Source: a virus
Lineage: Duplodnaviria; Heunggongvirae; Uroviricota; Caudoviricetes
Direction: 5' to 3' (one strand)
DNA: 64,000 nucleotides
IMG/VR virus record: IMGVR_UViG_3300007177_000114
Under the pieces are notes generated by a model. That model searched no databases and was not told the origin of the DNA. It was given only the letters and a program-made list of their open reading frames with translations. Positions within the stretch are counted from its first letter, which is position 1. Every line of letters starts with the position of its first letter. Positions 5,739 to 33,923 of the stretch are shown here, in pieces. The position numbers and the translations under genes were made by a program.

Positions 5739-5757
5739 CAGGAGAACGTAATATATC

Positions 5758-11758: not shown

Positions 11759-12063
11759 TGTGGATTTGTTTTAATGATGGATTTGTTTCTGTAGTTAAAG
11801 ATAAGCTTAATATAGACGATTTGGTTATTAGAGCTAGACGTAAAGAGATTTTGGAAAGACTTTTTCCAGATCGAGAAATTACCGTTCTTGGGGTTGCAGA
11901 TTATAAGTATAGGACTTACTGCAGTAAAGAAGAATGGTCAAACATTTTGGTTGACAGAGTTTCGGATATAGAGTATACTAACTTTAAGGATTCCACAACC
12001 GATCACGACTTACATGATTTATATGGTGAGATGTGGATGCTTCATTATCAATATCAACGCTAA
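11758..12063 (+). CDS. hypothetical protein
   Basis: ATGTGG start overlaps the upstream stop; 101 aa. Confidence 0.5.
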   Translation: MWICFNDGFVSVVKDKLNIDDLVIRARRKEILERLFPDREITVLGVADYKYRTYCSKEEWSNILVDRVSDIEYTNFKDSTTDHDLHDLYGEMWMLHYQYQR

Positions 12064-12126
12064 GATCAAAAAAATGTGTTGACAAACAAACTTTTTGGTT
12101 TAAAATGTTCAAATAATGATGAAGGA

Positions 12127-12348
12127 ATGATAAATATGGCTACTGAATCCAAAATTAATATGCTTTTTCGGGCTTTACTTGATCGTTCGGAGTCTTTGAC
12201 TGCACGACAAATTGCTGCTCGATATAGGATTTCCAATCCTTATGATCTAATTTATCGCCTTCGTAATGAAGGGATTAAAATTGAACGGCTAAAAACGACA
12301 AATAGTCGTGGTAAAATTGTATATCGCTATTCTTGGGGTGGAGTTTAA
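12127..12348 (+). CDS. small helix-turn-helix DNA-binding protein
   Basis: AAGGAA RBS; SLTARQIAARYRISNPYDLIYRLRNEGIKIE looks like an HTH/winged-helix; driven by TTGACA-N17-TAAAAT at 12084. Confidence 0.5.
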   Translation: MINMATESKINMLFRALLDRSESLTARQIAARYRISNPYDLIYRLRNEGIKIERLKTTNSRGKIVYRYSWGGV

Positions 12349-12395
12349 ACTCCACTTTCTTGATCTTTTATAATTGAATATGTAAAAAAGTTTAT

Positions 12396-12468
12396 GGGTG
12401 ATGGTAGCTAAGTGACTAGCTATTCACTAGCCGAAAGTAGGTATGCTAAGACTTCCTACCACCCATAA
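12396..12468 (+). other. tRNA-like structured element, unresolved
   Basis: GGGTGAT...ATCACCCA ends could form an acceptor-like helix and there is a GTAGG/CCTAC stem, but I could not obtain a canonical cloverleaf. Confidence 0.2.
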
Positions 12469-12471
12469 TAT

Positions 12472-12543
12472 GGACCGGTAGCTCAGAGGCAGAGCAGGTG
12501 GCTCTTAACCATCAGGTCGAGATTTCGAAATTCTCTCGGTCCT
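12472..12543 (+). tRNA. tRNA-Lys(CTT)
   Basis: Manual cloverleaf: acceptor GGACCGG/TCGGTCC, D arm GCTC-AGAGGCA-GAGC, anticodon loop CTCTTAA, T arm GAGAT-TTCGAAA-TTCTC. Confidence 0.7.
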
Positions 12544-12553
12544 CATAAGCACC

Positions 12554-12611
12554 TCGATTATATAAATAGCAATGACAATAAGACTATTATATAATCGAGG
12601 GTTAGCACAAC
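12554..12611 (+). promoter_or_regulatory. RBS-occluding hairpin containing a T4-type late promoter box (TATAAATA at 12561-12568) upstream of the GIY-YIG gene
   Basis: CCTCGATTATATAA...TTATATAATCGAGG inverted repeat; the GAGG Shine-Dalgarno lies in the 3' arm; conserved with 21855..21913. Confidence 0.55.
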
Positions 12612-13154
12612 ATGTACTATACTATTTATAAAATTACTAATAAACTTAACGGCAACTTTTATATCGGTAAACATAAGACCAAGAATCTAGATGATGGTTA
12701 TATGGGGTCCGGTAAACTTATTAGGGCAGCCATAAATAAATATGGTATTGAAAATTTTGAGAAAGAAATACTTGAAATTTTTGATACTGAAGAAGAAATG
12801 AATGAAGCCGAAAAAAGATATGTTGTTCTAGGTGAAGGAAGTTATAATCTTTGCCCTGGTGGGCAAGGTGGTTGGGGTTATATTAACCAAAATAATTTGG
12901 GTGGTACTTTAGGTAAAAAACACTCCAATGAAACTAAAACTAAAATAGCTTTATCTGTTAAAAATATTATGTTAAACGAAAGAAGATATGAATTAACTTC
13001 CTGGTGTTTAAAAAATGGGAATGGAATGTTAGGTAAAAAACATTCCCACGAAACTAAGGCTAAAATGTCAGGACCACGTGGAAAATATAACGTTAACAAA
13101 GCTGGTATTAAACGTGGTCCATATAAAAAGAAAAATATAGAATATTCCTCGTGA
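12612..13154 (+). CDS. GIY-YIG homing endonuclease (Seg-like)
   Basis: N-terminal YYTIYKITNKLNGNFYIGKH (GIY-YIG motif); paralog at 21914..22567; the stop lies inside the 5' end of the downstream tRNA. Confidence 0.8.
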   Translation: MYYTIYKITNKLNGNFYIGKHKTKNLDDGYMGSGKLIRAAINKYGIENFEKEILEIFDTEEEMNEAEKRYVVLGEGSYNLCPGGQGGWGYINQNNLGGTLGKKHSNETKTKIALSVKNIMLNERRYELTSWCLKNGNGMLGKKHSHETKAKMSGPRGKYNVNKAGIKRGPYKKKNIEYSS

Positions 13155-13222
13155 TCCGAGCAAGCGAACGGACCCGGCTGTTAACCGGAGTTTGCCAGGG
13201 GCGGTACCTGGACGAGGAGCCA
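13146..13222 (+). tRNA. tRNA-Asn(GTT), noncanonical T-loop
   Basis: Acceptor TCCTCGT/ACGAGGA with G discriminator and encoded CCA; D arm TCCG...CGGA; anticodon loop CTGTTAA; T arm CCAGG-GGCGGTA-CCTGG (no TTC). Confidence 0.5.
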
Positions 13223-13324
13223 ATTAAAGAACGGCGCAACTTAGTCTACCCGATTAATTGCCGGATATAGTAGGGTAGAGTCCTTCGATGGTAAGCTGGC
13301 TTTGTCCCGTTCTTTAACTCACAT

Positions 13325-13401
13325 GCTCCCTTAACCCAACGGGTAGAGGTAGGAGACTTAAAATCTCTTCAGTATCAGTTCGAATCTGATAGGGAGTACC
13401 A
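13325..13401 (+). tRNA. tRNA with anticodon TAA (Leu-type) but class-I length; D arm irregular
   Basis: Acceptor GCTCCCT/AGGGAGT (G-U first pair), anticodon arm GGAGA-CTTAAAA-TCTCT, T arm ATCAG-TTCGAAT-CTGAT, A discriminator, CCA encoded. Confidence 0.4.
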
Positions 13402-13570
13402 CTTTGGATCAGTAGCGTATAGGTCAGGCAAGTGCTACCACCGGGCTTTTAATCCGGCCGCAAGGGGAGCGTTACCTCACTGATCCTCCACTAAAGACAA
13501 GCGTAGAATGCAAATGAGTAGAGGATGACACTCATTATTGCCGTGCGATACGGCTAGTCTTATACTTTAA

Positions 13571-13646
13571 TGACCTGTAGCTCAATTGGGAGAGCACAGT
13601 CCTGATAAGACTGAAGTAGTTGGATCGAAACCAACCAGGTCAACCA
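13571..13646 (+). tRNA. tRNA-Ile(GAT)
   Basis: Acceptor TGACCTG/CAGGTCA, D arm GCTC-AATTGGGA-GAGC, anticodon arm CAGTC-CTGATAA-GACTG, T arm GTTGG-ATCGAAA-CCAAC, CCA encoded. Confidence 0.75.
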
Positions 13647-13649
13647 TTT

Positions 13650-13727
13650 GCGGTAGTCTTCTAATTGGCTTAGGAACCCTGATTTTCACTCAGGCCAATG
13701 CGGGTTCGAGTCCCGTCTACCGCACCA
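13650..13727 (+). tRNA. tRNA-Glu(TTC)
   Basis: Acceptor GCGGTAG/CTACCGC, anticodon arm CCTGA-TTTTCAC-TCAGG, T arm GCGGG-TTCGAGT-CCCGT, CCA encoded. Confidence 0.6.
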
Positions 13728-13733
13728 AGTTTT

Positions 13734-13809
13734 GCTGAGTTAGCACAATTGGTAGTGCAATCGCCTTGTAAGCGATAGGTTGGGGATTCGATTTCCTCAC
13801 TCAGCACCA
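13734..13809 (+). tRNA. tRNA-Thr(TGT)
   Basis: Acceptor GCTGAGT/ACTCAGC, D arm GCAC-AATTGGTA-GTGC, anticodon arm ATCGC-CTTGTAA-GCGAT, T arm GGGGA-TTCGATT-TCCTC, CCA. Confidence 0.75.
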
Positions 13810-13862
13810 AATAGAGGTTGACAAACCTTTCGATTAGTGATATAAAATTATATAATTTCTAT

Positions 13863-13958
13863 GGTCCTGTAGCTCAATGGTAAGAGCGGAGAGCTTATAC
13901 CTCTCGTATGCACTAGATTGGTGCGCGGTTGGCGGTTCGAGTCCGTCCAGGACTACCA
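13863..13958 (+). tRNA. class-II (long variable arm) tRNA; anticodon reads TAT; identity unclear
   Basis: Acceptor GGTCCTG/CAGGACT, D arm GCTC-AATGGTAA-GAGC, anticodon arm GAGAG-CTTATAC-CTCTC, about 25-nt extra arm with GCAC/GTGC stem, T arm GGCGG-TTCGAGT-CCGTC, CCA. Confidence 0.45.
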
Positions 13959-13971
13959 AAATTTAAATAAT

Positions 13972-14047
13972 GCTCTTGTAGTCTAACCGGAAAGGCAACA
14001 GTCTTCTAAACTGTCCTATGGTGGTTCGAGTCCGCCCAAGAGCACCA
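13972..14047 (+). tRNA. tRNA-Arg(TCT)
   Basis: Acceptor GCTCTTG/CAAGAGC, anticodon arm ACAGT-CTTCTAA-ACTGT, T arm GGTGG-TTCGAGT-CCGCC, CCA. Confidence 0.75.
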
Positions 14048-14178
14048 CTTTCAAGTACTAGTCAGAGTAAATAGGGCACCTGACTTCAAGATGACTGCTG
14101 GTATAACCGTTAAATCCCACCTATGGGAAGTAGGGCTCTGGTACTTGATTATCCTATAATTAGAAAGGAATATATATT

Positions 14179-14739
14179 ATGTCCTTCAACGTTCATGATT
14201 CATATAAGGATCTGAGTGTAGAAGAATTGAAAAAGCTATCGGATACAACTCGACTCCCATATTCAATTTGTCTGCTTAATTTAGATCATGATCTAAATAT
14301 TGGGAATTGTATTCGTACAGCTCATATTTTTGGTGCTCAAAAGGTTTTTATCTTTGGTAAGCGTCGATATGATTTGAGATCAACAGTTGGTGCTAATCAT
14401 TATACTAATATCATCAAGCATGATTTTGCAGAACTCACAAGTGATGAAGTTATCGTTGCTGAATTTGAAAAGATGATTCGTGAAAATGATCTGCAACCAC
14501 TTCTAGTTGATAAGACAGAAAAATCTGTTGATATAAATGGTATGTTTGATTATTATGATTATACAAGGAACGGATATCCATGCTTGGTTTTCGGGAATGA
14601 AAATTCCGGAATCCCAACATGCTTGACGGATAAATATCCTTGCTTTCATATTCGTCAACGTGGAGTAATTCGTTCACTAAATGTTGCATCTGCTGCTGCA
14701 GTTGCAATGTACGAATTCTCTAAATATATAGAAGAATAA
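14179..14739 (+). CDS. SpoU/TrmH-family RNA 2'-O-methyltransferase
   Basis: Motifs NIGNCIRTAHIFG, VFGNENSGIP and SLNVASAAAVAMYEF (SPOUT class); embedded in the tRNA cluster. Confidence 0.7.
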   Translation: MSFNVHDSYKDLSVEELKKLSDTTRLPYSICLLNLDHDLNIGNCIRTAHIFGAQKVFIFGKRRYDLRSTVGANHYTNIIKHDFAELTSDEVIVAEFEKMIRENDLQPLLVDKTEKSVDINGMFDYYDYTRNGYPCLVFGNENSGIPTCLTDKYPCFHIRQRGVIRSLNVASAAAVAMYEFSKYIEE

Positions 14740-14813
14740 GCGGAATTGGCGTAAAGGTAGCGTCTTTGGCTTCCACCCAAAAGGCACGAGTTCGAATCTC
14801 GTATTCCGCACCA
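14740..14813 (+). tRNA. tRNA-Gly(TCC)
   Basis: Acceptor GCGGAAT/ATTCCGC, anticodon arm TTTGG-CTTCCAC-CCAAA, T arm ACGAG-TTCGAAT-CTCGT, CCA. Confidence 0.65.
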
Positions 14814-14814
14814 C

Positions 14815-15147
14815 TGACAAGTACATCGTGAGGTGCTAGTTATCGGGCAAATTTGAACAAACGATAACCTACCACATAATATCAGCTGTAAAAGTGGATA
14901 GCGATGTACTTAAGAGACCCGATCTCTATCTGTATAGCAATTGGTGGCTTGACTTGGTCAGTCAAGATATTGTGGGCTAACCACCTACAGCCAAGTATAT
15001 TGGTTTAGATCGGTATTGATTGATTCTTAGGCTCGTGTGCGGGGCAGCTGCAGTAAACGACCTGCTAACCTTGTGGATCCAAGAAGATTTAGACGGCTCG
15101 AGCTCCGGCTAAAGTGAGGAACATAGCAAACCTAAGAATCATACAGT
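14815..15147 (+). ncRNA. ORF-free structured region (candidate stable RNA), about 330 nt
   Basis: Long-range complement AGTACATCG (14826) / CGATGTACT (14908); nested hairpins CTTGACT-TGGTC-AGTCAAG, GGTGG...CCACC, GCAGCTGC and GCTCGAGC; no canonical tRNA fold. Confidence 0.3.
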
Positions 15148-15148
15148 T

Positions 15149-15223
15149 GCAGGGTAGAGGAGTCCGGTCGTCCTCGCCTGGTTCATACCCAGGAAATCGT
15201 GGGTTCAAATCCCGCCTCTGCTA
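15149..15223 (+). tRNA. tRNA-Met(CAT), possibly initiator-like (mismatched first pair)
   Basis: Anticodon arm CCTGG-TTCATAC-CCAGG, D arm GAGG...CCTC, T arm GTGGG-TTCAAAT-CCCGC, acceptor GCAGGG/CTCTGC with an unpaired first position; no CCA. Confidence 0.5.
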
Positions 15224-15224
15224 C

Positions 15225-15296
15225 GCCTTCGGATCAAGTGGTCTCGGTCGTCTCATAAGCGACTAGATTGTGGAGCGTTACCACACGAAGGCACCA
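15225..15296 (+). tRNA. tRNA with anticodon CAT (Met or Ile2), atypical T-loop
   Basis: Perfect acceptor GCCTTCG/CGAAGGC plus A and CCA; anticodon arm GTCGT-CTCATAA-GCGAC; T arm TGTGG-AGCGTTA-CCACA; short D arm. Confidence 0.5.
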
Positions 15297-15321
15297 ATTT
15301 GTTTATCTAGGATAATATAAT

Positions 15322-16017
15322 ATGAGTGTGGTTAGATTTTTTTTAGACGACTTGTTTACAACAGATAGTTCAGAATATGATATTTTACACAGAGCTGTTT
15401 TGCAGTGTAAAAATACACCTGGTGCTATAGTTGAAATAGGTACTAGAATGGGTGGTTCTGCCAGAATTATCATCGACAGTTTAGTACATAATTCTGATAC
15501 AGATAGGTCAATGTTCTGTATTGACCCTTATGGAAATATTGAGTATATTAGCACAAATTTTAATATAACTCAACACTATCCAGGCACACCAGTTTCAGGT
15601 GATCCTACTTCTAAAGATATAACTCAACCCATTAGACTTGACTATTCTAATGAAATGAGGAATAAAATTATTCCTTCACTGTATTATTATGCCTTTAGCA
15701 AAGGTATTAATTTTACTTTCTTTTGTATGGAAGACAGTGAATTTTTTAATAGATTTAGTGATGGTGTTCCCGTCTATAATCAGTTTAAAAAGTTAGAAAA
15801 TCAATATGCATTTGTTTTCTTTGACGGCCCTCATCACAATGAGGCAGTTAAATTAGAAACTAAATTCTTTGTAGAAAGATCCACTATCGGTACTGTTTTT
15901 GTTGCAGATGATATTTGGATGTATAATCATAATTTATTTGAAAAAATAATTTTTGAACACGGTTTTACAGTCCTTGAAAAAGGAAATATTAAAGCTTCTT
16001 ATAAGAAAACATCTTAA
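15322..16017 (+). CDS. class I SAM-dependent methyltransferase
   Basis: Motif I VEIGTRMGGSA; 231 aa; AGGATAATATAATATG upstream. Confidence 0.6.
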   Translation: MSVVRFFLDDLFTTDSSEYDILHRAVLQCKNTPGAIVEIGTRMGGSARIIIDSLVHNSDTDRSMFCIDPYGNIEYISTNFNITQHYPGTPVSGDPTSKDITQPIRLDYSNEMRNKIIPSLYYYAFSKGINFTFFCMEDSEFFNRFSDGVPVYNQFKKLENQYAFVFFDGPHHNEAVKLETKFFVERSTIGTVFVADDIWMYNHNLFEKIIFEHGFTVLEKGNIKASYKKTS

Positions 16018-16027
16018 GGTTTAAATT

Positions 16028-16660
16028 ATGCTTGAAACATGTTGCGATTTAATGGTAGAGGCCTATGAAAAAGGTCTAATGACTTCTAGAGATGGAAATG
16101 TATCCCTTAGATACAAGGGTCAAGATTATTTCTATCTTTCACCGACTGATATGCGAAAACAAACACTAAAACCTGATCAATTTAAAAAGTTATCAACTTC
16201 GTTAAAAGAAGATAGATCGCCAATTGTTTTACCTTATACTAATATTTCTTTTGGTTTAAAACCTTCTGGTGAATTTCCGTTACATTATATGCTTCAACGA
16301 ATTATTCCTACTGATTGGGAAACTCGAGTTGTAATGCATACACATTCAACCTATACAGTTGCAGCAATGCATGCTGGTTTAGAACTACATAGACTTAAAG
16401 ATCATTTTCCAGAAATTGCAAGATATACTAAAGTTGCTAAAAGCACAAATGATGTGCCGCCTATTTCATGGGATTTAGCTGAAGCCTGTATGGAAAACAT
16501 GAAATTGGATATGCACACAGGTGAAACTGAATTCAATATCGTGGGTATTAAAGGTCATGGTGTTGTATCAGTAGATAAGACTCCTTGGAGAGCTTATGAA
16601 CATATAGAGAGATTAGAACATATTTGCAAGATTATTTTGATCTCAGGTAAAGGAATTTAA
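16028..16660 (+). CDS. class II aldolase/adducin-family protein (MtnB/FucA-like)
   Basis: RDGNVSLRYKG and zinc-binding MHTHSTYTVAAMH motifs; 210 aa. Confidence 0.55.
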   Translation: MLETCCDLMVEAYEKGLMTSRDGNVSLRYKGQDYFYLSPTDMRKQTLKPDQFKKLSTSLKEDRSPIVLPYTNISFGLKPSGEFPLHYMLQRIIPTDWETRVVMHTHSTYTVAAMHAGLELHRLKDHFPEIARYTKVAKSTNDVPPISWDLAEACMENMKLDMHTGETEFNIVGIKGHGVVSVDKTPWRAYEHIERLEHICKIILISGKGI

Positions 16661-16694
16661 TTGACAGTATAAATATACTGTGATATATTATCCA

Positions 16695-16745
16695 AATAAT
16701 GGGGAGGCTGCTCCGACGGTGGTGGGGCGGCGGTCTGAAAACCGT
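16695..16745 (+). pseudogene. truncated tRNA-like 5' fragment (acceptor, D arm and Phe-type anticodon arm; no T arm)
   Basis: GGGGAGGCTGCTCC...GCGGT-CTGAAAA-ACCGT then directly the late-promoter/hairpin of the HNH gene; looks like a tRNA gene disrupted by insertion. Confidence 0.25.
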
Positions 16746-16749
16746 TTTA

Positions 16750-16774
16750 TATAAATACTCCTATAATAAGGAGT
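16750..16774 (+). promoter_or_regulatory. late promoter box TATAAATA plus RBS-sequestering hairpin CTCCT-ATAATA-AGGAG
   Basis: TATAAATA at 16750-16757; the AAGGAG Shine-Dalgarno of the HNH gene forms the 3' arm of the hairpin. Confidence 0.5.
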
Positions 16775-16781
16775 GTTACAT

Positions 16782-17222
16782 ATGGAACAAAAACATAATA
16801 TTGATGATTCTGTGTATATTGAAGCCTACTATAGGTTAAAAACTATCGGTAAAATAGCTCATGAATTGGGCGTACCTGACGTAACAGTATGGAGAAGATG
16901 TAAAAAACTTGGTTTAAGTTTTAAAAATGGTGGGCAAAATAAAGATAAAAGAAGAAATCAAACCAAATTTCTTCTTGAAGATATATTAAATGGATTACAC
17001 CCACAATATCCAACTGTTAAACTTAAAAATAGACTTATTAAAGAAAATAAAATAGAATATAAATGTTCTTTATGTTCCATAAAAGAATGGAATTCGAAAG
17101 AATTAACACTTCATCTAGATCATATAGATGGTAATCCAAAAAATCACAATCTAAATAATTTAAGATTGTTATGTCCTAATTGTCATTCTCAAACTGATAC
17201 ATGGTGTGGTAAAAATAAATAA
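16782..17222 (+). CDS. HNH homing endonuclease
   Basis: C-terminal HLDHIDGNPKNHNLNNLRLLCPNCHSQ (HNH with zinc-ribbon cysteines); ATG at 16782 after AAGGAG. Confidence 0.7.
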   Translation: MEQKHNIDDSVYIEAYYRLKTIGKIAHELGVPDVTVWRRCKKLGLSFKNGGQNKDKRRNQTKFLLEDILNGLHPQYPTVKLKNRLIKENKIEYKCSLCSIKEWNSKELTLHLDHIDGNPKNHNLNNLRLLCPNCHSQTDTWCGKNK

Positions 17223-17223
17223 A

Positions 17224-17315
17224 GGGAGCTGTTCTCTGCGGGTGACTGTAAATCACTTGCCTCAAACAATTGCAGAGTGGTCGGCGGTTAGGTTCAATTC
17301 CTTCAGTTCCCACCA
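17224..17315 (+). other. tRNA-like element: acceptor-like ends, encoded CCA, Tyr-type anticodon hairpin GGTGA-CTGTAAA-TCACT, but degenerate D and T arms
   Basis: Acceptor GGGAGCT/AGTTCCC plus A plus CCA; long-range helix CTCTGC/GCAGAG; T stem only 3 bp. Confidence 0.3.
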
Positions 17316-17375
17316 ATTTAATACTAGACAATGCTATTCTAGTATAGTTAAATATAATTTGAAAAGGTAAATAAA

Positions 17376-17885
17376 ATGAAGACAGTTATTATGGCTACAA
17401 TTATGGCTCTAGGTCTAACTTCTGTTGCGGTTGCCCAGAGTAAAGATACATCTGATCGTGGTTTTTTCCTAGGTGGTCATGTCGGTTCTTTTACCGGTAG
17501 TCAAGACCAAGTTACCATTGGCCTAAATGGTGGATATCAGGTAAATCGTTTCCTCCGTGCCGAACTTACCGCTGAAAATGCATGGAAGCAAAAGACTGGA
17601 TCTGGCACAATGGTATTTGCAAATGTAATACCGCAGTATCGAATTCCAGGAACTACTCTGACACCATATGCAGTTGCAGGTGTTGGTTATGCATTTGATT
17701 CTCTTGGTTCAGTCAAGAATGGTGTTGCTTCACCGGTTTATAATCTAGGTCTTGGAACTCGTGTAGCAATTACGGATCGAATTGATGCTGATCTACGTTG
17801 GCGTAATGTTCGTTCCATGAATACTTCTAATGCCCGTGTACGAGATGATAATATCTTTACTGTGGGTGGGTCTTATAAGTTCTAA
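17376..17885 (+). CDS. outer-membrane beta-barrel protein (OmpA-N/OmpW-like) with signal peptide
   Basis: Signal peptide MKTVIMATIMALGLTSVAVAQ, alternating amphipathic strands, C-terminal GGSYKF aromatic terminus typical of OMPs. Confidence 0.6.
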   Translation: MKTVIMATIMALGLTSVAVAQSKDTSDRGFFLGGHVGSFTGSQDQVTIGLNGGYQVNRFLRAELTAENAWKQKTGSGTMVFANVIPQYRIPGTTLTPYAVAGVGYAFDSLGSVKNGVASPVYNLGLGTRVAITDRIDADLRWRNVRSMNTSNARVRDDNIFTVGGSYKF

Positions 17886-17966
17886 ATAAATATGGGGACG
17901 TGGGATAAACACCCGACAATCCATGTCTTAATGTGAGAAGTGGTAATCTCTCCCACAATATTTTAT

Positions 17967-18042
17967 GGTGACTAGAGTCAGCAAGTGTGGACGGTGGTCT
18001 GTGAAACCATCTAGACGGGAGCAATACCCGTTAGTCACCCCA
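17967..18042 (+). tRNA. tRNA-His(GTG) with extra 5' G(-1)
   Basis: G-1 opposite C73; acceptor GTGACTA/TAGTCAC; anticodon arm GTGGT-CTGTGAA-ACCAT; T arm ACGGG-AGCAATA-CCCGT (atypical loop); CCA encoded. Confidence 0.65.
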
Positions 18043-18129
18043 ATATATACCGGTCCTCGTTTGACCGTCCCGATGATAAGAACAAAGGTCTTTAATATTG
18101 TCGCCGGTATGCTATATTGTTTATAATAC

Positions 18130-18223
18130 GGAAGGTGAACCGGACAGGCGTGCCGGACCGGTCTTGAAAACCGTGGGAACCCTTAAACAAGGTTTGGACT
18201 TCGAGTGTGCCCGCCTTCCGCCA
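18130..18223 (+). tRNA. tRNA-Ser(TGA), class II, imperfect T stem
   Basis: Acceptor GGAAGGT/GCCTTCC plus G plus CCA; D arm CCGG...CCGG; anticodon loop CTTGAAA; variable-arm hairpin with CTTAAAC loop; T loop TTCGAGT. Confidence 0.5.
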
Positions 18224-18240
18224 ATTTTTTTGGATCTATA

Positions 18241-18417
18241 ATGGAAGATATTGAAAAACATATTGACACAAAAGAATTTAATGAATTATTTTGGCAATGG
18301 TTTGATGATCTCCCGATAGATAGACAACGACAGTTTAATTACTACAAATACGATGTAGCCAAAATGAATTTTTATAATACAGAATATCGTTTTAGACTCC
18401 GTGGCTCGAATGTTTAG
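18241..18417 (+). CDS. hypothetical small protein
   Basis: ATG at 18241 (MEDIEKHIDTKEF...) within track ORF 18205..18417. Confidence 0.35.
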   Translation: MEDIEKHIDTKEFNELFWQWFDDLPIDRQRQFNYYKYDVAKMNFYNTEYRFRLRGSNV

Positions 18418-18440
18418 GCAGAGGACTGTTTGGTAAAAAT

Positions 18441-18477
18441 CGAACCTATATAAATAAAAATAAATTATATAGGTTCG
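18441..18477 (+). promoter_or_regulatory. hairpin with late promoter box TATAAATA upstream of the HNH gene
   Basis: CGAACCTATATAAATAAAAATAAATTATATAGGTTCG inverted repeat; TATAAATA at 18449-18456. Confidence 0.5.
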
Positions 18478-18482
18478 ATTAA

Positions 18483-19178
18483 ATGAAAACATGTCCTTTT
18501 TGTTCTAATACCCATAATAAGCCAGGTATATTTTGTTCTAGATCGTGTGCTAACAGTAGAGGCCCTAGATCTGAAAGTTTTAAACTAAAGGTTAGACAAA
18601 AACTTTTAGGTAAAAAACTTTCAGTTGAACATCTTAATAGTTTACCAAGGGGTGATAACCATTTTAAACGAAAAAATAAAAATATACAAAGTTTAAAACC
18701 GTTATATGATGAATGTGAATTTTGTAAATCTACATTTATAAATAAAAAAACTTCAAAGTTTTGTACAAAAAAATGTTGGATGTTACATAACGAATCTTTA
18801 AGAACAGCTTGGGAAGCATATAAAATTAAGTGTAAATTTACATTTAATGTATATGATTACCCAAATTGGTTTAATACATCAATAATTGATGAGTATGGTT
18901 GGTATAGTGCCTCTAATAAAGGTAATAATTTAAATGGTGTGAGTCGTGATCATATGATATCTGTAAGATACGGATTTGAAAATAATATTGATCCAAAAAT
19001 AATATCACATCCTGCTAATTGCAGTCTTGTTAGACATAAAGATAATCAAACTAAAAGAACTAAATGTTCTTTAACATTAGAAGAATTATACAAAAATATT
19101 AAAATGTTTGAGTCTCATTGGCAGAATGGCTATGTATCCGGCTGCAACCCGGAGGATCTGGGTTCGATTCCTAGATGA
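18483..19178 (+). CDS. HNH homing endonuclease with N-terminal zinc-finger-like region
   Basis: CPFCSN...CSRSCANS and GVSRDHMISVRYGF...NCSLVRHKDNQTKRT (HNH); its 3' end runs through the tRNA-Cys gene. Confidence 0.65.
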   Translation: MKTCPFCSNTHNKPGIFCSRSCANSRGPRSESFKLKVRQKLLGKKLSVEHLNSLPRGDNHFKRKNKNIQSLKPLYDECEFCKSTFINKKTSKFCTKKCWMLHNESLRTAWEAYKIKCKFTFNVYDYPNWFNTSIIDEYGWYSASNKGNNLNGVSRDHMISVRYGFENNIDPKIISHPANCSLVRHKDNQTKRTKCSLTLEELYKNIKMFESHWQNGYVSGCNPEDLGSIPR

Positions 19179-19186
19179 GACTCCAC
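19113..19186 (+). tRNA. tRNA-Cys(GCA)
   Basis: Acceptor GTCTCAT/ATGAGAC, anticodon arm TCCGG-CTGCAAC-CCGGA, T arm CTGGG-TTCGATT-CCTAG, T discriminator, CCA encoded. Confidence 0.65.
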
Positions 19187-19224
19187 TTTTTATCTCGGTT
19201 AGAGTCCGGGCGGAGTCTCCAATT

Positions 19225-19644
19225 ATGAAATATATACTTACACTACTATTTGCACTTGTATCTTTTAATGCACTAGCAAATCCGTATCAATATAGAGTTA
19301 TTAGAGTTATAGATGGTGATACAGTAGAATTTGATGCACCATTTCTTCCTGTGGAATTAAAACAGGTCTTAAAACTAAGACTTGTTGATATAGATACACC
19401 AGAGAAAGGTAGTCTAGCTAAATGTCAACAAGAGGTTGTTAAAGCCCAAGCGGCTACCGACTTTACTAAAAGAATGGTTGGTTTTGCTACTAGACATGAA
19501 ATTGTGCTAGATAAATGGGATAAATACGGCGGCAGAGTTCTTGGTGATCTTATTCTTGATGGTAAGAGTCTTAAGAAGATGCTAATAGATGCCGGTTATG
19601 CTGTCCCATATGACGGTGGTAAAAAATCTAGCTGGTGCAAATAA
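19225..19644 (+). CDS. secreted staphylococcal-nuclease (SNase/thermonuclease)-like protein
   Basis: Signal peptide MKYILTLLFALVSFNALA; SNase motifs IRVIDGDT and RLVDIDTPE; GGAG RBS. Confidence 0.75.
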   Translation: MKYILTLLFALVSFNALANPYQYRVIRVIDGDTVEFDAPFLPVELKQVLKLRLVDIDTPEKGSLAKCQQEVVKAQAATDFTKRMVGFATRHEIVLDKWDKYGGRVLGDLILDGKSLKKMLIDAGYAVPYDGGKKSSWCK

Positions 19645-19704
19645 TTGGTTGACAAACCTGCTAAGTGTGGTATAAATATCTTATACTGATTGAGAGGAAG
19701 TTAG

Positions 19705-19860
19705 ATGTCTGACAGTTATTCCATTCAAATGCTTAAAGCTTCTGCTTTTGACCATGAATTGAGAAATGTCATTGACTTGCTGCCAGTAGATCAACAAGAC
19801 GAAGAAGTTCTAATTGTAAAAAATTATTTACTCAAGCGAGTAAAAGAACTTAAGAATTAA
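19705..19860 (+). CDS. hypothetical small protein (51 aa)
   Basis: GAGAGGAAG RBS; TTGACA-N17-TATAAAT promoter at 19650-19679 containing a TATAAATA box. Confidence 0.35.
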   Translation: MSDSYSIQMLKASAFDHELRNVIDLLPVDQQDEEVLIVKNYLLKRVKELKN

Positions 19861-19935
19861 CCGGGTGTAGCTCAGAGGAAGAGCGCTAGTTTTGGGAACT
19901 AGAGGCCGAGATTTCGATACTCTCCATCCGGACCA
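19861..19935 (+). tRNA. tRNA-Pro(TGG)
   Basis: Acceptor CCGGGTG/CATCCGG, D arm GCTC-AGAGGAA-GAGC, anticodon arm CTAGT-TTTGGGA-ACTAG, T arm GAGAT-TTCGATA-CTCTC, CCA. Confidence 0.7.
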
Positions 19936-19940
19936 TTAAT

Positions 19941-20015
19941 GCCAGTGTAGCTCAGAGGCAGAGCAATCCCTTTACACGGGAAAGGTCGGGGTTTCAATAT
20001 CCTCCACTGGTACCA
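19941..20015 (+). tRNA. tRNA-Val(TAC)
   Basis: Acceptor GCCAGTG/CACTGGT, D arm GCTC-AGAGGCA-GAGC, anticodon loop TTTACAC, T loop TTCAATA, CCA. Confidence 0.6.
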
Positions 20016-20032
20016 TATTATGTGAGAAAGTT

Positions 20033-20218
20033 ATGGCAAAAACAGTAGAGATTATTCTATGTAGAACTTGCAAAGGTTCTGGACAAACTTCTTATGATGA
20101 ATGTATTGATTATCATAAAAGAGAATATGATACGATCTATAAAACTTGCTATGTCTGCAAAGGTTCTGGTAGACTTAAACAAACGACAACTGTTGAAATT
20201 GAACCATATTACAATTAA
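20033..20218 (+). CDS. small zinc-ribbon protein (two CxxCxGSG motifs)
   Basis: CRTCKGSGQT ... CYVCKGSGRL; 61 aa. Confidence 0.45.
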   Translation: MAKTVEIILCRTCKGSGQTSYDECIDYHKREYDTIYKTCYVCKGSGRLKQTTTVEIEPYYN

Positions 20219-20222
20219 TTAA

Positions 20223-20298
20223 TGCCGCTTTAGTGTAGATGGTCTGCACGTAAGACTGAAAATCTTGAAGTTGGGGATCGTTACCCCGAGGCGGTACC
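20223..20298 (+). tRNA. tRNA-Phe(GAA)
   Basis: Acceptor GCCGCTT/AGGCGGT, D arm GTGT...GCAC, anticodon arm TAAGA-CTGAAAA-TCTTG, T arm TGGGG-ATCGTTA-CCCCG, CCA. Confidence 0.6.
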
Positions 20299-20314
20299 AA
20301 ATTAGGAAAATCTG

Positions 20315-20500
20315 ATGCAAAATTATCCTGAAGATCCCATTGAAACTATCCGTCGTGCTCGTGAACGAATCTATTGGGAAGCTCAAGATAATGGCGGCCG
20401 CTATACGGATCAACATCATAGTCTGATGCGTGATCCGGTTAAGATGATTGAAGATCAGAAGCTCCGAGACTACTACTACGAAAATGATTATTGGCGATAA
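20315..20500 (+). CDS. hypothetical small protein
   Basis: 61-aa ORF between tRNAs. Confidence 0.35.
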   Translation: MQNYPEDPIETIRRARERIYWEAQDNGGRYTDQHHSLMRDPVKMIEDQKLRDYYYENDYWR

Positions 20501-20501
20501 T

Positions 20502-20576
20502 AGCTCCTTAGCATAATGGCAGTGCAACAGACTTTGAATCTGTAAAGTCCAAGTTCGACTCTTGGAGGGGCTTCCA
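20502..20576 (+). tRNA. tRNA-Gln(TTG)
   Basis: Acceptor AGCTCCT/AGGGGCT, anticodon arm ACAGA-CTTTGAA-TCTGT, T arm CCAAG-TTCGACT-CTTGG, CCA. Confidence 0.7.
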
Positions 20577-20585
20577 ATATTTAAT

Positions 20586-20660
20586 AGGGAAATCATCTAA
20601 CGGCTAAGATCTCAGACTCTGACTCTGATTATACTGGTTCAAATCCAGTTTTCCCTTCCA
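20586..20660 (+). tRNA. tRNA-Gln(CTG)
   Basis: Acceptor AGGGAAA/TTTCCCT, D arm ATCT...AGAT, anticodon arm TCAGA-CTCTGAC-TCTGA, T arm ACTGG-TTCAAAT-CCAGT, CCA. Confidence 0.7.
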
Positions 20661-20664
20661 TTCT

Positions 20665-20739
20665 GCGGATATAATTCAAAGGTAGAATATTTCGTTGCCA
20701 ACGAAATTGTTACCGGTTCGAATCCGGTTATCCGTTCCA
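20665..20739 (+). tRNA. tRNA-Gly(GCC)
   Basis: Acceptor GCGGATA/TATCCGT, D arm ATTC...GAAT, anticodon arm TTTCG-TTGCCAA-CGAAA, T arm ACCGG-TTCGAAT-CCGGT, CCA. Confidence 0.75.
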
Positions 20740-20746
20740 GTCTATG

Positions 20747-20826
20747 CTCCCATAACCACCGATAATACGAATATCGAGTAAGGTAAATGGATGAAAATGC
20801 GGGTTCGAATCCTGCTGGGAGCTCCA
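20747..20826 (+). tRNA. atypical tRNA-like gene (anticodon hairpin reads ACG; no recognisable D arm)
   Basis: Perfect acceptor GCTCCCA/TGGGAGC plus T plus CCA; T arm GCGGG-TTCGAAT-CCTGC; hairpin CGATA-ATACGAA-TATCG; 22 extra nt before the T arm. Confidence 0.35.
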
Positions 20827-20930
20827 CTTTGATAGACAAAAGAACTGCGTCGGTTGTTCTAGACCCTTATGTCCCGTTGCGCAACGTGGGAAGTGATTAA
20901 GTAGAAAGAACTGTCTGTCAAAACTGTTAT

Positions 20931-21008
20931 GCTCGTGTAGCCCAATTGGTAAGAGGCACTAGCCTTAGAAGCTAGGTGTTGCTAGTTCGAATCTAGTCAC
21001 GAGTACCA
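20931..21008 (+). tRNA. tRNA with anticodon TAG (Leu-type codon CUA) but class-I architecture
   Basis: Acceptor GCTCGTG/CACGAGT, anticodon arm CTAGC-CTTAGAA-GCTAG, 5-nt variable region, T arm GCTAG-TTCGAAT-CTAGT, A discriminator, CCA. Confidence 0.55.
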
Positions 21009-21113
21009 ACTTAACCGCAAGCCTGAGTTGGCCACGGGTCGTTTCTTGATAACGTCAACTATATCGGCTCTTAACCGAAGAATATCGTTGACTAATTGGG
21101 CGGTTAACATATC

Positions 21114-21189
21114 GGATCTTTAGCTCAGTTAGTAGAGCATCTGCTCGACACGCAGAAGGTCACTGGGGCGGGACCAGTAAGATCCACCA
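21114..21189 (+). tRNA. tRNA with anticodon loop TCGACAC (GAC, Val-type) and noncanonical T-loop GGCGGGA
   Basis: Perfect acceptor GGATCTT/AAGATCC plus A plus CCA; D arm GCTC-AGTTAGTA-GAGC; T stem ACTGG/CCAGT. Confidence 0.5.
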
Positions 21190-21206
21190 TTTGAGGATGT
21201 ATTATA

Positions 21207-21440
21207 ATGAAAATCATGACGGAAACTGATCTTCAGCTGATACAAAGATGTGATAGACGAGATTGTTGCATTTTTTCTTACGATACAAATCCTCCTTCTT
21301 TTTCTTGTTACGCATCGGAATGCAACAAAGAAAAGAATAGAACCTTAAAATTGTTGAAGTCTAGGAAAGTCTACGACGAAAATAAGAAATACTTCTTTGT
21401 TGGACCTTACTATACTTACGACGAAAATAAAATAGACTAA
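21207..21440 (+). CDS. hypothetical small cysteine-rich protein
   Basis: 77-aa ORF with GAGGATG RBS. Confidence 0.45.
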   Translation: MKIMTETDLQLIQRCDRRDCCIFSYDTNPPSFSCYASECNKEKNRTLKLLKSRKVYDENKKYFFVGPYYTYDENKID

Positions 21441-21442
21441 AT

Positions 21443-21518
21443 GGGGTGTGGGCATGGGTACCCGGATTTCCCTTGCACGGAGATAGCCTGATCGGTTCGA
21501 GTCCGATACATTCCACCA
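21443..21518 (+). tRNA. tRNA, probably Ala(TGC) (G3-U70 present); D and variable regions irregular
   Basis: Acceptor GGGGTGT/ACATTCC with G3-T70, anticodon arm TTTCC-CTTGCAC-GGAGA, T arm ATCGG-TTCGAGT-CCGAT, CCA. Confidence 0.45.
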
Positions 21519-21524
21519 ATATAA

Positions 21525-21600
21525 GGGTCTGTAGCTCAATCGGGAGAGCAATGGCTTGTCAAGCCATAGGTAGCGGGATCAAAACCCGTCAGACTCGCCA
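21525..21600 (+). tRNA. tRNA-Asp(GTC)
   Basis: Acceptor GGGTCTG/CAGACTC, D arm GCTC-AATCGGGA-GAGC, anticodon arm ATGGC-TTGTCAA-GCCAT, T arm GCGGG-ATCAAAA-CCCGT, G discriminator, CCA. Confidence 0.7.
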
Positions 21601-21755
21601 AACTTTTACATTGCATCAAGAACCTTAAGAAGTCATGACTCTTAAGATATTGAAAGCATATTTTCTAGAAATATGTGAGCTTTGAGCCCCGGTAACAAGG
21701 GATGGGTAGAATCGAACTGTGTTATAATACCCAATGTAATGTAAATTAATTTAAT

Positions 21756-21845
21756 GGAATACTAACCGGACAGGTGATGCCGGTCACGCCTGGAAAGCGT
21801 TGAGGACCTAGAAATAGGTTTGTGTTTCGAATATACAGTATTCCG
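21756..21845 (+). tRNA. tRNA-Ser(GGA), class II
   Basis: Acceptor GGAATAC/GTATTCC, D arm ACCG...CGGT, anticodon loop CTGGAAA, variable-arm hairpin ACCT-AGAAAT-AGGT, T arm TGTGT-TTCGAAT-ATACA; no CCA. Confidence 0.6.
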
Positions 21846-21854
21846 CATAAGCAC

Positions 21855-21913
21855 CTCCGTTGTATAAATAGCAATGTCAATAAGACTATTCTACAACGGA
21901 GGGTTAGCGCAAC
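21855..21913 (+). promoter_or_regulatory. RBS-occluding hairpin with late promoter box TATAAATA (21863-21870) upstream of the second GIY-YIG gene
   Basis: CCTCCGTTGTA...TACAACGGAGG stem with compensatory changes relative to 12554..12600; loop AATAGCAATGTCAATAAGACTATT conserved. Confidence 0.55.
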
Positions 21914-22567
21914 ATGCACTATACTATTTATAAAATTACTAATAAGATTAACGGTAACTTTTATATCGGCAAACATAAGACCAAAAATTTAGATGATGGT
22001 TATATGGGTTCTGGTAAACTTATAAAAGCAGCCATAAAAAAATATGGTAAAGAAAATTTTACAAAAGAAATACTTGAATTTTTTGATACTGAAGAAGAAA
22101 TGAATGAAGCCGAAAAAAGATATGTTGTTTTAGGTGAAGGTAGTTATAATATATGTCCCGGTGGCCAAGGTGGTTGGGGTTATATTAATAATAGCGGATT
22201 AAATTGGACCCCAGAAAAAAATAAAAGAATAAGTGGGTTTAAAAACTTTACCCTTGAACAAAGAAGATACTATGCTGTAGTTAATAAATCTCATTTATAT
22301 ATTGAAAAATACCGTGAAAATGTTAAATTAGGATTAGCTAATCCACCAAAAAGACATAGACCTATGTCGGAAGAACATAGAAATAAAATTGGAAAAGCAA
22401 ATTCTATTAAGCAAAAAGGATCATTAAATTCCCAATTTGGAATAAGATTTAAGTGGATGAACAAAAATAATATAAATAAAAAAGTTCCTTTACAAGAAAC
22501 TAATGATTATTTAAGTAATGATTGGGTTTTTGGTAGATCTAAATCCAATTCAACTATGCTGATATAG
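21914..22567 (+). CDS. GIY-YIG homing endonuclease (Seg-like), paralog of 12612..13154
   Basis: HYTIYKITNKINGNFYIGKH; N-terminal 100 aa about 85% identical to the first copy; stop inside the next tRNA. Confidence 0.8.
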   Translation: MHYTIYKITNKINGNFYIGKHKTKNLDDGYMGSGKLIKAAIKKYGKENFTKEILEFFDTEEEMNEAEKRYVVLGEGSYNICPGGQGGWGYINNSGLNWTPEKNKRISGFKNFTLEQRRYYAVVNKSHLYIEKYRENVKLGLANPPKRHRPMSEEHRNKIGKANSIKQKGSLNSQFGIRFKWMNKNNINKKVPLQETNDYLSNDWVFGRSKSNSTMLI

Positions 22568-22634
22568 AACAGTTGGAAGTTTCGCATTCTTGGTAAGAAT
22601 GAGGTCGCTAGTTCGATTCTAGCTATCAGCACCA
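22558..22634 (+). tRNA. tRNA-Thr(GGT)
   Basis: Acceptor GCTGATA/TATCAGC, anticodon arm CATTC-TTGGTAA-GAATG, T arm GCTAG-TTCGATT-CTAGC, CCA. Confidence 0.7.
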
Positions 22635-22635
22635 T

Positions 22636-22712
22636 GCATCTATAGGCCAATTGGTAGAGTCAATGGTTTGAGAGACCATACAGTGCTGGTTCGAATCCAG
22701 TTAGATGCACCA
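22636..22712 (+). tRNA. tRNA with anticodon GAG (Leu-type codon CUC) but class-I architecture
   Basis: Acceptor GCATCTA/TAGATGC perfect, anticodon arm ATGGT-TTGAGAG-ACCAT, 5-nt variable region, T arm GCTGG-TTCGAAT-CCAGT, A discriminator, CCA. Confidence 0.55.
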
Positions 22713-22717
22713 ATAAT

Positions 22718-22808
22718 GGAGAGTAAACCGGGCAGGCGTACCGGACTTCCCTGCTAAGGAATGTGGGCCCTTAAACGGCTTTGTCTTCGACTGACATGCT
22801 CTCCGCCA
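22718..22808 (+). tRNA. tRNA-Ser(GCT), class II
   Basis: Acceptor GGAGAGT/GCTCTCC plus G plus CCA; D arm CCGG...CCGG; anticodon loop CTGCTAA; variable arm with CTTAAAC loop; T arm TGTC-TTCGACT-GACA. Confidence 0.55.
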
Positions 22809-22919
22809 CTAGTTCATGATATAAACTACACTTGCACAACGGTAAGTCTTTTAATGTCGACTATAAAAGAACCCAGCAAGGAAGATAAGGTTTAACAGGC
22901 GAGTTGCCGTCATGAACGT

Positions 22920-23531
22920 TTATAATAAAAACAAGCAAAGTGCTAATGCTACTACAACACCTACAAATATTTCCGCCCATTCTTCGTGTTGATATACTCT
23001 ACTATCGGTAAAACATGATACAAAATTTGGGATTATTGGAAATTTGTGTAACGGTAGTTTCTCTGCTAAAGCATAAGAACTTGCAAATAATAGACTGAAT
23101 ACAGGTAGTAAAACTATCAAATATGGATTAATCAATATTGTAGTTGCTATAAAGAACGGTAAAAATAAAATAAAACCACAAAACGAGAGTCCGGTAAAAT
23201 CCCAGGCTCTCGTATGCTTTATGAGCTTAAACATCTTAGGGAAGAAGTCAATCCATGATGGTGATGCAGGAATTACATGTCTTCCCATTCCCATATATGG
23301 ACCCCAACCAGATAGAATTAAACCTAATACCAAAGCAATAGTTAAAATAGGAAATATCAACCATTCACCGACTAGAAGTGCTACACTAGCACCAAGAAAA
23401 GACATGGTGAGTAATCTAGTAACATTAGTTCCTACATTAAGTTTTAAAAATGTTTTTAATGCACCACCTCTTAATCTCCATACTAATGGTGTAATTAAAA
23501 GAATATAAATAATCGACAAAAATGTTAACAT
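22920..23531 (-). CDS. polytopic integral membrane protein
   Basis: 203 aa with at least 5 hydrophobic spans. Confidence 0.55.
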   Translation of the reverse strand: MLTFLSIIYILLITPLVWRLRGGALKTFLKLNVGTNVTRLLTMSFLGASVALLVGEWLIFPILTIALVLGLILSGWGPYMGMGRHVIPASPSWIDFFPKMFKLIKHTRAWDFTGLSFCGFILFLPFFIATTILINPYLIVLLPVFSLLFASSYALAEKLPLHKFPIIPNFVSCFTDSRVYQHEEWAEIFVGVVVALALCLFLL

Positions 23532-32566: not shown

Positions 32567-32793
32567 TGCTCTTAAAGGACTTTATAGCGCAACTTCAGGA
32601 AATATATGATAATGCAGTAGCTGATCCTGAGTATTATAAAATGATGGGTGAACCTGCAATTTATGTAGATACATTTGATGAAGCTGGTGGATATCGCTAT
32701 GTATATAGCGGTTATTCACCAAATATTCGGATAGATTTTGATCCATCAAGTGGAGATTATGTAATTTGTGCTTTTGGTGGTTCACTTGAATAA
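32566..32793 (+). CDS. hypothetical protein
   Basis: 75-aa ORF, ATG overlapping the upstream TAA. Confidence 0.45.
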   Translation: MLLKDFIAQLQEIYDNAVADPEYYKMMGEPAIYVDTFDEAGGYRYVYSGYSPNIRIDFDPSSGDYVICAFGGSLE

Positions 32794-33846: not shown

Positions 33847-33923
33847 GTAAAATTAAGGATTGGTTGCAGCAATAAAAAAGTTTTTTATTGGAAAAAAACA
33901 AACCACGCCAATCCGTTTAATAT

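Follow-up and report, generated by a model that had tools for sequence, protein, structure and literature searches.

Introduction

In phage T4 and its relatives, a hairpin combined with a late promoter has been described for the homing endonuclease genes I-TevI, I-TevII, I-TevIII, T4 segB, and Aeh1 mobE (PMC2988022). The same silencing logic applies to T4 e, soc, 39, 25, and 26, where a hairpin-masked ribosome-binding site (RBS) silences late genes on long early and middle transcripts (PMC2988022), but these are ordinary phage genes rather than mobile endonucleases. Here, we analyze a 64,000-nucleotide (nt) stretch of an uncultured tailed phage (Caudoviricetes; IMG/VR record IMGVR_UViG_3300007177_000114), which we refer to in its full length as the window, and describe four homing endonuclease cassettes in its early-transcribed transfer RNA (tRNA) cluster that, judged from their sequences, are probably kept translationally silent until late infection by this T4-type control.

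T4 segB lies in a tRNA cluster behind a -20 kcal/mol hairpin that covers both its Shine-Dalgarno (SD) sequence and its AUG, and tRNA processing cuts its transcript after the final sense codon, ahead of the stop codon (PMC2330249). The SegB protein recognizes a motif of the tRNA T-arm (PMC2330249), and the association of SegB with tRNA genes is reported to be widespread (PMC13096335).

Results

Four nuclease genes are each preceded by a stable hairpin

The plus-strand tRNA cluster of the window spans positions 12400-22800, and the four nuclease genes, their leaders, and the tRNA sequences discussed with them are all on this strand. Two of the genes, GIY1 (12612-13154) and GIY2 (21914-22567), encode SegB-like GIY-YIG homing endonucleases. 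Both match phrog_314 “homing endonuclease” (6e-48 and 3e-42, respectively), and both exceed the Pfam cut-offs for PF01541 (GIY-YIG; 26.9 and 25.9 bits, cut-off 22.6) and PF19835 (SegE_GIY-YIG; 26.3 and 25.8 bits, cut-off 25). These matches, together with a mutual identity of 63%, confirm the two as the paralogs that an initial annotation of this DNA had recognized. Their catalytic halves are nearly identical, and the proteins are unrelated after residue ~95; in the Pfam scan, NUMOD3 was found in GIY1 (30.4 bits) and was not detected in GIY2. GIY1 is ~47% identical to T-even SegB/SegD-type genes, and GIY cassettes occur patchily among syntenic relatives, a distribution that indirectly fits site-specific cleavage and preferential inheritance in mixed infections.

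The initial annotation also called two HNH genes. For HNH1 (16782-17222) this call probably holds: the gene matches phrog_10822 “HNH endonuclease” at 4e-33, its product carries the motif HLDH...N...CPNCH, and its Pfam HNH score of 20.6 bits lies just below the cut-off of 21.4. The second gene, ORF18483 (18483-19178; ORF, open reading frame), gave no Pfam or PDB sequence match. It belongs to an unannotated family of at least 655 proteins with an invariant DH...N...N, and the best match of its predicted structure (pLDDT 88) is to HNH/His-Me-finger nucleases, below significance. We therefore describe its product as probably HNH-like.

As the initial annotation had noted, each of these genes is preceded by a stable hairpin. 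We compared each leader with 200 shuffles, and no shuffle equaled any of the four. The GIY1 hairpin spans 12552-12600 (-19.9 kcal/mol, z -5.1), with a 5' arm at 12552-12569, a loop at 12570-12583, and a 3' arm at 12584-12600; the GIY2 hairpin, paralogous to it, spans 21854-21902 (-24.3 kcal/mol, z -5.3). The ORF18483 hairpin (18438-18480; -18.9 kcal/mol, z -7.1) consists of 16 perfect pairs. The HNH1 hairpin contains three U.G pairs (-17.7 kcal/mol, z -5.9) and spans 16744-16788, rather than the 16759-16774 first assigned to it, so that the AUG is paired as well as the SD sequence; the other three hairpins lie close to where they had originally been placed.

The SD sequence of every gene is held in the 3' side of its hairpin: GAGGG of GIY1 at the 3' end of the stem (12597-12601), 10 nt upstream of the ATG; GGAGGG of GIY2 in the 3' arm (21898-21903); AAGGAG of HNH1 in the inner 3' arm (16768-16773); and AGG of ORF18483 (18471-18473) within a conserved AGGTTCGATT 3' arm, 9 nt before the ATG. 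The spacers between SD and ATG, 8-10 nt, are within the 5-13 nt range of confident genes in this phage. In the read-through RNA, the SD-bearing segment of the 3' arm has a predicted P(unpaired) of 0.00 for GIY1, GIY2, and ORF18483, and the AUG of HNH1 likewise has a P(unpaired) of 0.00. Accessibility in a fixed window (-16 to -5) across 95 ORFs did not separate the GIY genes, whose SD sequences lie further upstream; a joint criterion of stable hairpin plus the promoter motif described below does separate them.

Predicted late transcripts start within the hairpin loops

All four hairpins carry an exact copy of the 8-mer TATAAATA, either within the 5' arm or where arm and loop meet, in agreement with the initial annotation, which had placed a late-promoter motif in the 5' arm or loop. 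The T4 late consensus occupies positions -13 to -6 (PMC1524935), and T4 late promoters need no -35 element (PMC2988020). We predicted +1 as the sixth base after TATAAATA, following the T4 rule (PMC1524935). This places the putative start of GIY1 at 12574 in the loop (motif at 12561-12568, in the 5' arm), that of GIY2 at 21876 in the loop (21863-21870), that of HNH1 at 16763, the first loop base (16750-16757, in the 5' arm), and that of ORF18483 at 18462 in the loop (18449-18456, at the arm/loop edge). For 4/4 leaders, this rule positions +1 within the apical loop, immediately after the 5' arm.

RNAs beginning at these positions are predicted to fold at merely -3 to -9 kcal/mol. For the three genes with a fully paired SD arm in read-through RNA, the P(unpaired) of that arm rises from 0.00 to 0.6-0.8 in the predicted late RNA; for GIY1 it is ~0.77 in RNAs starting anywhere from 5 to 8 nt past the motif. 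The HNH1 leader changes from a stem of -17.7 kcal/mol to a fold of -3.7 kcal/mol.

TATAAATA is enriched in the window, with 18 copies against 7.4 +/- 2.6 expected, and 16 of the copies are on the coding strand. Its association with hairpins is narrow: among the 84 strongest 60-nt window folds, only the GIY1, GIY2, and ORF18483 hairpins contain it. The motif occurs within 70 nt upstream of nine of the 95 plus-strand ORFs, four of which are the nuclease genes, and no other ORF in the tRNA cluster (12000-23000) combines it with a stable hairpin covering the SD sequence.

We compared these leaders with the described systems. Re-folding the T4 segB leader gave -19.4 kcal/mol with CATAAATA in the 5' arm, a layout almost superimposable on that of HNH1. 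T4 segB shares with GIY1 and GIY2 its location in a tRNA cluster, an RBS-covering hairpin of about -19 to -24 kcal/mol, and xATAAATA in the 5' arm; in each case the ORF also runs up to or into the following tRNA gene, which means that tRNA maturation can clip the messenger RNA (mRNA) (PMC2330249). The window leaders differ in carrying the exact consensus TATAAATA where T4 has CATAAATA, and the GIY hairpins cover the SD sequence only, whereas that of T4 segB also covers the AUG. The window moreover has two paralogous GIY copies with different C-terminal halves, and its phage is only distantly related to T4, with a polymerase 48% identical to its best database match. I-TevI, as well as I-TevII and I-TevIII, shares the sequestration of the RBS on read-through RNA of the early and middle periods and a late RNA without the inhibitory arm (PMC2988022), but these genes reside inside self-splicing group I introns, whereas an Rfam search detected no intron family at the window genes, which also leave no space for a ribozyme core. 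Aeh1 mobE, another free-standing HNH gene, likewise has a hairpin that sequesters its RBS, and mobE is expressed late (PMC2988022); it lies in the ribonucleotide reductase gene region, whereas the window genes lie among tRNA genes. The CTAAATA-type late motif of Aeh1 (PMC1524935) also occurs upstream of several relatives of HNH1.

Hairpin pairing is conserved in two independent families

Comparison of the GIY1 and GIY2 stems reveals double compensatory changes at three pairs and a break at one more, which upholds the compensatory substitutions reported by the initial annotation; their loops, which it had taken to be identical, differ at one base (A versus T). We extended this comparison to an alignment of 15 GIY leaders, adding 13 further distinct ones from protein-guided and pattern-guided searches. 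Nine of the leaders were retrieved by a loop pattern, and the conservation of their loops therefore follows from how they were selected. Across the alignment, 92.9% of cells pair, compared to 28-58% in slid controls, and 7/17 pairs show double changes. The covariation score is 0.327 versus 0.114, and none of 500 shuffles scored as high. In a separate alignment of eight ORF18483-family leaders, 89% of cells pair (25-46% in slid controls), 3/16 pairs show double changes, and at one pair U.G outnumbers every other type. The hairpin structure is thus kept by covariation in two independent families, GIY and ORF18483. In addition, RNA of the plus strand exceeds that of the minus strand in stability by 3.5-7.4 kcal/mol for the leaders of three relatives (L120, L128, and L130) and of the window HNH1 (5.4 kcal/mol), which points to the RNA of the coding strand as the folded molecule.

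The palindromes might nevertheless act as DNA, either as operators bound by the nucleases or as recombination or cruciform sites, with RNA pairing incidental. I-TevI acts as a repressor of its own late promoter, by way of an operator resembling its homing site (PMC2988022), the GIY stems contain no G.U pairs, and two leader segments are conserved in sequence. The GIY loop GCAATNNCAATAAGACTAT (12570-12587 and 21872-21889) is conserved in the four leaders that protein similarity retrieved, which belong to proteins sharing 49-67% identity with GIY1; it is more conserved than a loop needs to be, and may represent an initial transcribed region or a protein-binding site. The ORF18483 family retains AGGTTCGATT, a tRNA T-arm-like word: its 3' arm (18465-18480 in the window; leaders in L120-L130) always reads AGGTTCRAWT, the word found in the tRNA T-arm and loop and in the core of the T4 SegB recognition motif. 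This could reflect an operator, a mimic of the homing site, or a plain constraint from the SD sequence and stem. We also considered the ORF18483 leader specifically as a mimic of a homing site in the tRNA-Cys T-arm and set this aside as speculation, as the similarity extends no further than the generic GGTTCGATT core. The conserved loop could still have an operator superimposed on it. The lower GIY stems, however, keep their pairing and not their sequence, as the double changes show, which suits a folded strand better than a site recognized by a sequence-specific protein, and the U.G pairs and strand asymmetry of the ORF18483 and HNH1 leaders point to RNA. Of the explanations that we weighed, a DNA-level role for the palindromes is the one we consider least likely.

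Conservation of the promoter motif bears on a different alternative, in which the hairpins dampen translation constitutively, holding a toxic nuclease at low levels throughout infection, and TATAAATA is merely an AT-rich part of the stem rather than a functional promoter. Permanent restraint was the original reading of T4 segB, near which no mapped promoter was reported (PMC2330249), and AT-rich stems can hold TATA-like words by chance, given the 7.4 copies expected in the window. In the GIY alignment, however, the TATAAATA columns are invariant in 15/15 leaders, and the partner column 51 is unpaired in six of them; invariance where the pairing partner breaks indicates that the motif itself is what is maintained. 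A late-promoter-like motif is found no more than 60 nt upstream of 45/53 distinct GIY relatives, 12/15 HNH1 relatives, and 7/7 ORF18483-family loci, or 80-100% of relatives, against 2-5% of control windows (3.1%, 1.8%, and 4.9%, respectively). Given also the position of the predicted +1 in the loop in every window leader, and a later review that marks a predicted late promoter for segB itself (PMC2988022), we find it improbable that the hairpins are dampers alone.

As an observation on the GIY leader itself, a 16-kb metagenome contig (L084; Ga0315901_10004942, positions 1176-1260) carries a leader hairpin identical to that of GIY1, but there it follows tRNA-Lys (UUU) and the order of the tRNAs is different, a placement that fits movement of the cassette between phages.

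A proposed model for early silencing and late release

Silencing by the hairpin presupposes that early transcription crosses the nuclease genes. A promoter scan identified a sigma-70-type early promoter at 16661-16689 (TTGACA-17-TATATT with a TG extension; 11/12 matches) that leads into the HNH1 cassette. L009, a syntenic relative with neither HNH1 nor ORF18483, conserves this promoter ahead of an intact tRNA-Tyr. As it serves as the tRNA-Tyr promoter in L009, in the window it must read through HNH1 to reach the tRNA. The other three ORFs are on the same strand and have no plus-strand terminator-like site immediately upstream, making read-through plausible for them as well, with a reservation for GIY1 given below.

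We propose the following model. Early RNA polymerase would read through the cassettes to make the tRNAs. On this long early RNA, each leader would fold into a 16-18 bp hairpin that buries the SD sequence, and for HNH1 the AUG as well, so that ribosomes could not initiate. Late in infection, a gp55-type polymerase would initiate at TATAAATA in the 5' arm, and the resulting transcript, starting in the apical loop and lacking the 5' arm, would leave the RBS open and allow the nuclease to be made.

Three of the nuclease ORFs (GIY1, GIY2, and ORF18483) terminate within the next tRNA or tRNA-like gene. The GIY1 stop codon (TGA, 13152-13154) lies inside a tRNA-like sequence at 13146-13222; the GIY2 stop codon (TAG, 22565-22567) lies 8-10 nt inside tRNA-Thr (22558-22634); and the last 22 codons of ORF18483 are tRNA-Cys sequence (19112-19178). 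An RNase P cut at the 5' end of these tRNAs would strip the stop codons from the mRNAs, likely providing a second brake on expression as proposed for T4 segB. The tRNA-like sequence at 13146-13222 was assigned by eye as Asn-GUU and is called by no tool. The C-terminal tails of many ORF18483 homologs are also translated tRNA sequence.

Since T4 tRNA-cluster transcripts are heavily processed (PMC2330249), the inverted repeats could mainly be signals for RNA processing or stability, for example an RNase III-type cut that releases the nuclease mRNA from a tRNA precursor. Every hairpin is flanked on one side by the nuclease ORF and on the other, immediately upstream, by a tRNA, a tRNA half, or a small ORF, and the stems are nearly perfect duplexes of 16-18 bp. 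Processing could coexist with occlusion of the RBS, but as the main function of the repeats we judge it unlikely, a shade less probable than the dampers considered above: every family has an SD sequence at the end of the 3' arm and a promoter motif in the 5' arm, and a pure processing site needs neither. The hairpins are also not terminators, as no T-run follows any of them.

Several observations weigh against the proposed late switch. The GIY spacers between SD and AUG are long (10-11 nt), yet the phage's own gp45 and gp62 have spacers of 13 and 11 nt. SD accessibility of HNH1 rises only slightly, from 0.21 to 0.35, and the argument for this gene therefore rests on the difference in folding energy. 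In the predicted late RNAs of relatives the RBS is more open for 35/39 GIY, 11/11 HNH1, and 7/7 ORF18483 leaders, counts that carry no truncation-matched control, and any truncation removes pairing partners. The lack of G.U pairs noted above leaves DNA-level structure possible for the GIY family. Upstream of GIY1, a terminator-like site at 12335-12358 precedes tRNA-Lys, and we found no clear early promoter between this site and the gene. Finally, gp55 and gp33, expected in the T4 family (PMC2988020), were not identified among the window ORFs scanned, which yielded only the gp45 clamp and its loader, so the case for TATAAATA as a late promoter of this phage consists of T4-family knowledge and the enrichment of the motif.

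Overall, the I-TevI/seg-type strategy that the initial annotation had proposed is supported at the level at which we could examine it: structure prediction and covariation statistics both agree with a functional hairpin, the predicted +1 lies in the loop of each leader, the SD-bearing arm or, for HNH1, the AUG is predicted to be fully paired in read-through RNA, and the design has published precedent (PMC2988022, PMC2330249). Every prediction that this strategy makes for the leader sequences was borne out. The three alternatives discussed above are possible as added layers, and none of them explains the full pattern. Since the design is that published for I-TevI, T4 segB, and Aeh1 mobE, we regard the window genes as new members of a known mechanism; the window contributes new examples and comparative support, and no new mechanism. 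The taming of homing endonucleases by early silencing and late release from a promoter within a hairpin would then not be peculiar to coliphage T4, but would be a design that selection has maintained in three unrelated families of nucleases, in T4-like phages that are distant and uncultured. The covariation provides comparative evidence that the original T4 work lacked, and the combination of hairpin and motif can serve as a practical rule when late promoters and genes for mobile nucleases are annotated in phage genomes from metagenomes.

HNH-type cassettes lie inside disrupted tRNA genes

The initial annotation had placed the four genes between tRNA genes. All four do lie in the tRNA cluster, but in addition to the three ORFs that end inside the next tRNA or tRNA-like gene, both HNH-type cassettes are inside a disrupted resident tRNA gene, tRNA-Tyr for HNH1 and tRNA-Cys for ORF18483, each accompanied by an intact tRNA of the same identity. 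At the corresponding places, L009 has an intact tRNA-Tyr (4674-4762) and an intact tRNA-Cys (5731-5806).

At the Tyr site, the order is the promoter at 16661-16689, the resident tRNA-Tyr 5' half, the HNH1 cassette, and a different, intact tRNA. The 5' half (16701-16745, aligning to L009:4674-4762) runs from the acceptor through the anticodon arm, with T35 of the anticodon deleted. The intact tRNA behind HNH1 (17224-17315) is a type-II tRNA with a CTGTAAA loop as in tRNA-Tyr; it is called only by ARAGORN at relaxed threshold, which labels it SeC. A tRNA-Tyr directly follows the gene in 5/15 HNH1 relatives scanned (L095, L101, L102, L110, and L113). We considered HNH1 as a tRNA intron and rejected this, since Rfam returned no intron family, the tRNA downstream is complete by itself, and a matching 3' half is absent.

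At the Cys site, the resident 5' half (18395-18428, aligning to L009:5731-5806) ends at G34 of the anticodon GCA and doubles as coding sequence for the C-terminus of an ORF at 18241-18417. The intact tRNA-Cys(GCA) of the cassette, identified by both ARAGORN and Rfam, occupies 19112-19185 and is followed by the resident 3' remnant (19186-19221; tRNA positions ~41-76). The acceptor strand of this remnant, CGGAGTC, complements 18395-18401 and also provides the GGAG for the gene at 19225. About 760 nt separate the two halves, 696 of them ORF, leaving no room for a ribozyme core, and Rfam found no intron family in 11500-38000 at E <= 0.1. Rejoining of the halves as RNA can be rejected, as resident positions 35-40 are missing and the junctions vary among relatives: L120, L121, and L123 have the same split tRNA-Cys with matching acceptor halves and junctions that have decayed differently. 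This variation indicates decay of the resident gene. A tRNA-Cys overlaps the end of the ORF in 7/7 ORF18483-family loci examined.

We tentatively suggest, with slightly less than even confidence, that the HNH-type cassettes follow a “break and replace” strategy, in which the nuclease targets a resident tRNA gene and the cassette inserts there together with its late-switch leader and a rescuing, divergent tRNA. The targets may be the anticodon loop of tRNA-Cys and, for tRNA-Tyr, a site just after the anticodon arm. The tRNA halves would serve as portable homology arms, which could permit homing into any phage with that tRNA, whatever its flanking genes, and the conserved GIY loop and AGGTTCGATT would be possible autorepression operators. 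If a replacement tRNA moves along with the nuclease, which breaks the resident copy, early transcription must cross the nuclease gene to reach the tRNA, and silencing of that gene would be needed. Fungal mitochondrial atp6 with an ORF360-type element is reportedly a case of a homing endonuclease insertion that brings a replacement copy of part of its target gene, and synthetic “cleave and rescue” drives likewise pair a broken target with an intact copy that travels along. Of the four cassettes, only the two HNH-type ones resemble these systems, having a broken resident tRNA gene and an intact gene of the same identity beside the nuclease. If the model is correct, such cassettes could explain both their movement between phages with shuffled tRNA clusters and the mosaic nature of phage tRNA clusters.

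Phage context and further features of the window

The window derives from a distant T4-like phage. It encodes a replication module comprising gp43, UvsX, a gp41-type helicase, the gp45 clamp, the gp44/62 loader, and RegA, as well as NadV. The gp43-type DNA polymerase belongs to phrog_262, and its best database identity, given above, is to marine and cyanophage polymerases. A megablast search of the region against 50,697 phage records returned no DNA-level relative, only short tRNA or HNH fragments.

The tRNA cluster contains 23 standard tRNA calls, and additional atypical tRNAs appear solely at a relaxed ARAGORN threshold. The atypical sequences are the SeC/Tyr-like tRNA at 17224-17315 and those at 17968-18042, 18130-18223, and 22718-22808; default ARAGORN, and for the most part Rfam, miss them. 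Labels among the relaxed-threshold tRNAs include SeC/Tyr-like, His, Ser-UGA, and Ser-GCU, and some have T-loops that appear unusual by eye. The tRNA-Ile(UAU) at 13863-13958 is 96 nt long with an extra arm of ~20 nt, and an unusually long tRNA-Ile(UAU) of 90-95 nt recurs in many related contigs (L005, L008, L009, L017, L084, L096, L121, and L130).

Outside the cluster, two further hairpins occur near copies of TATAAATA. The first, at 46627-46669 upstream of an ORF at 46697-47146, folds at -24.8 kcal/mol with TATAAATA in its 5' arm and AGGAGG outside the stem, resembling the unusual arrangement of seg43(25) in Aeromonas phage 25. The second is a perfect 16-bp hairpin at 32821-32866 within an ORF at 32768-33061, with TATAAATA 37 nt downstream, at 32903.

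In a second tRNA region, ARAGORN identified two tRNAs with stop-reading anticodons, at 33924-33998 (CUA, labeled Pyl) and 34979-35050 (UCA, labeled SeC); despite these, window ORFs end normally at all three stop codons. Between the tRNAs of this second region, a motif close to AAGGATGSTTTCAGCAA occurs in five copies, at approximately 33855-33872, 34813-34829, 34958-34975, 35189-35201, and 35329-35345.

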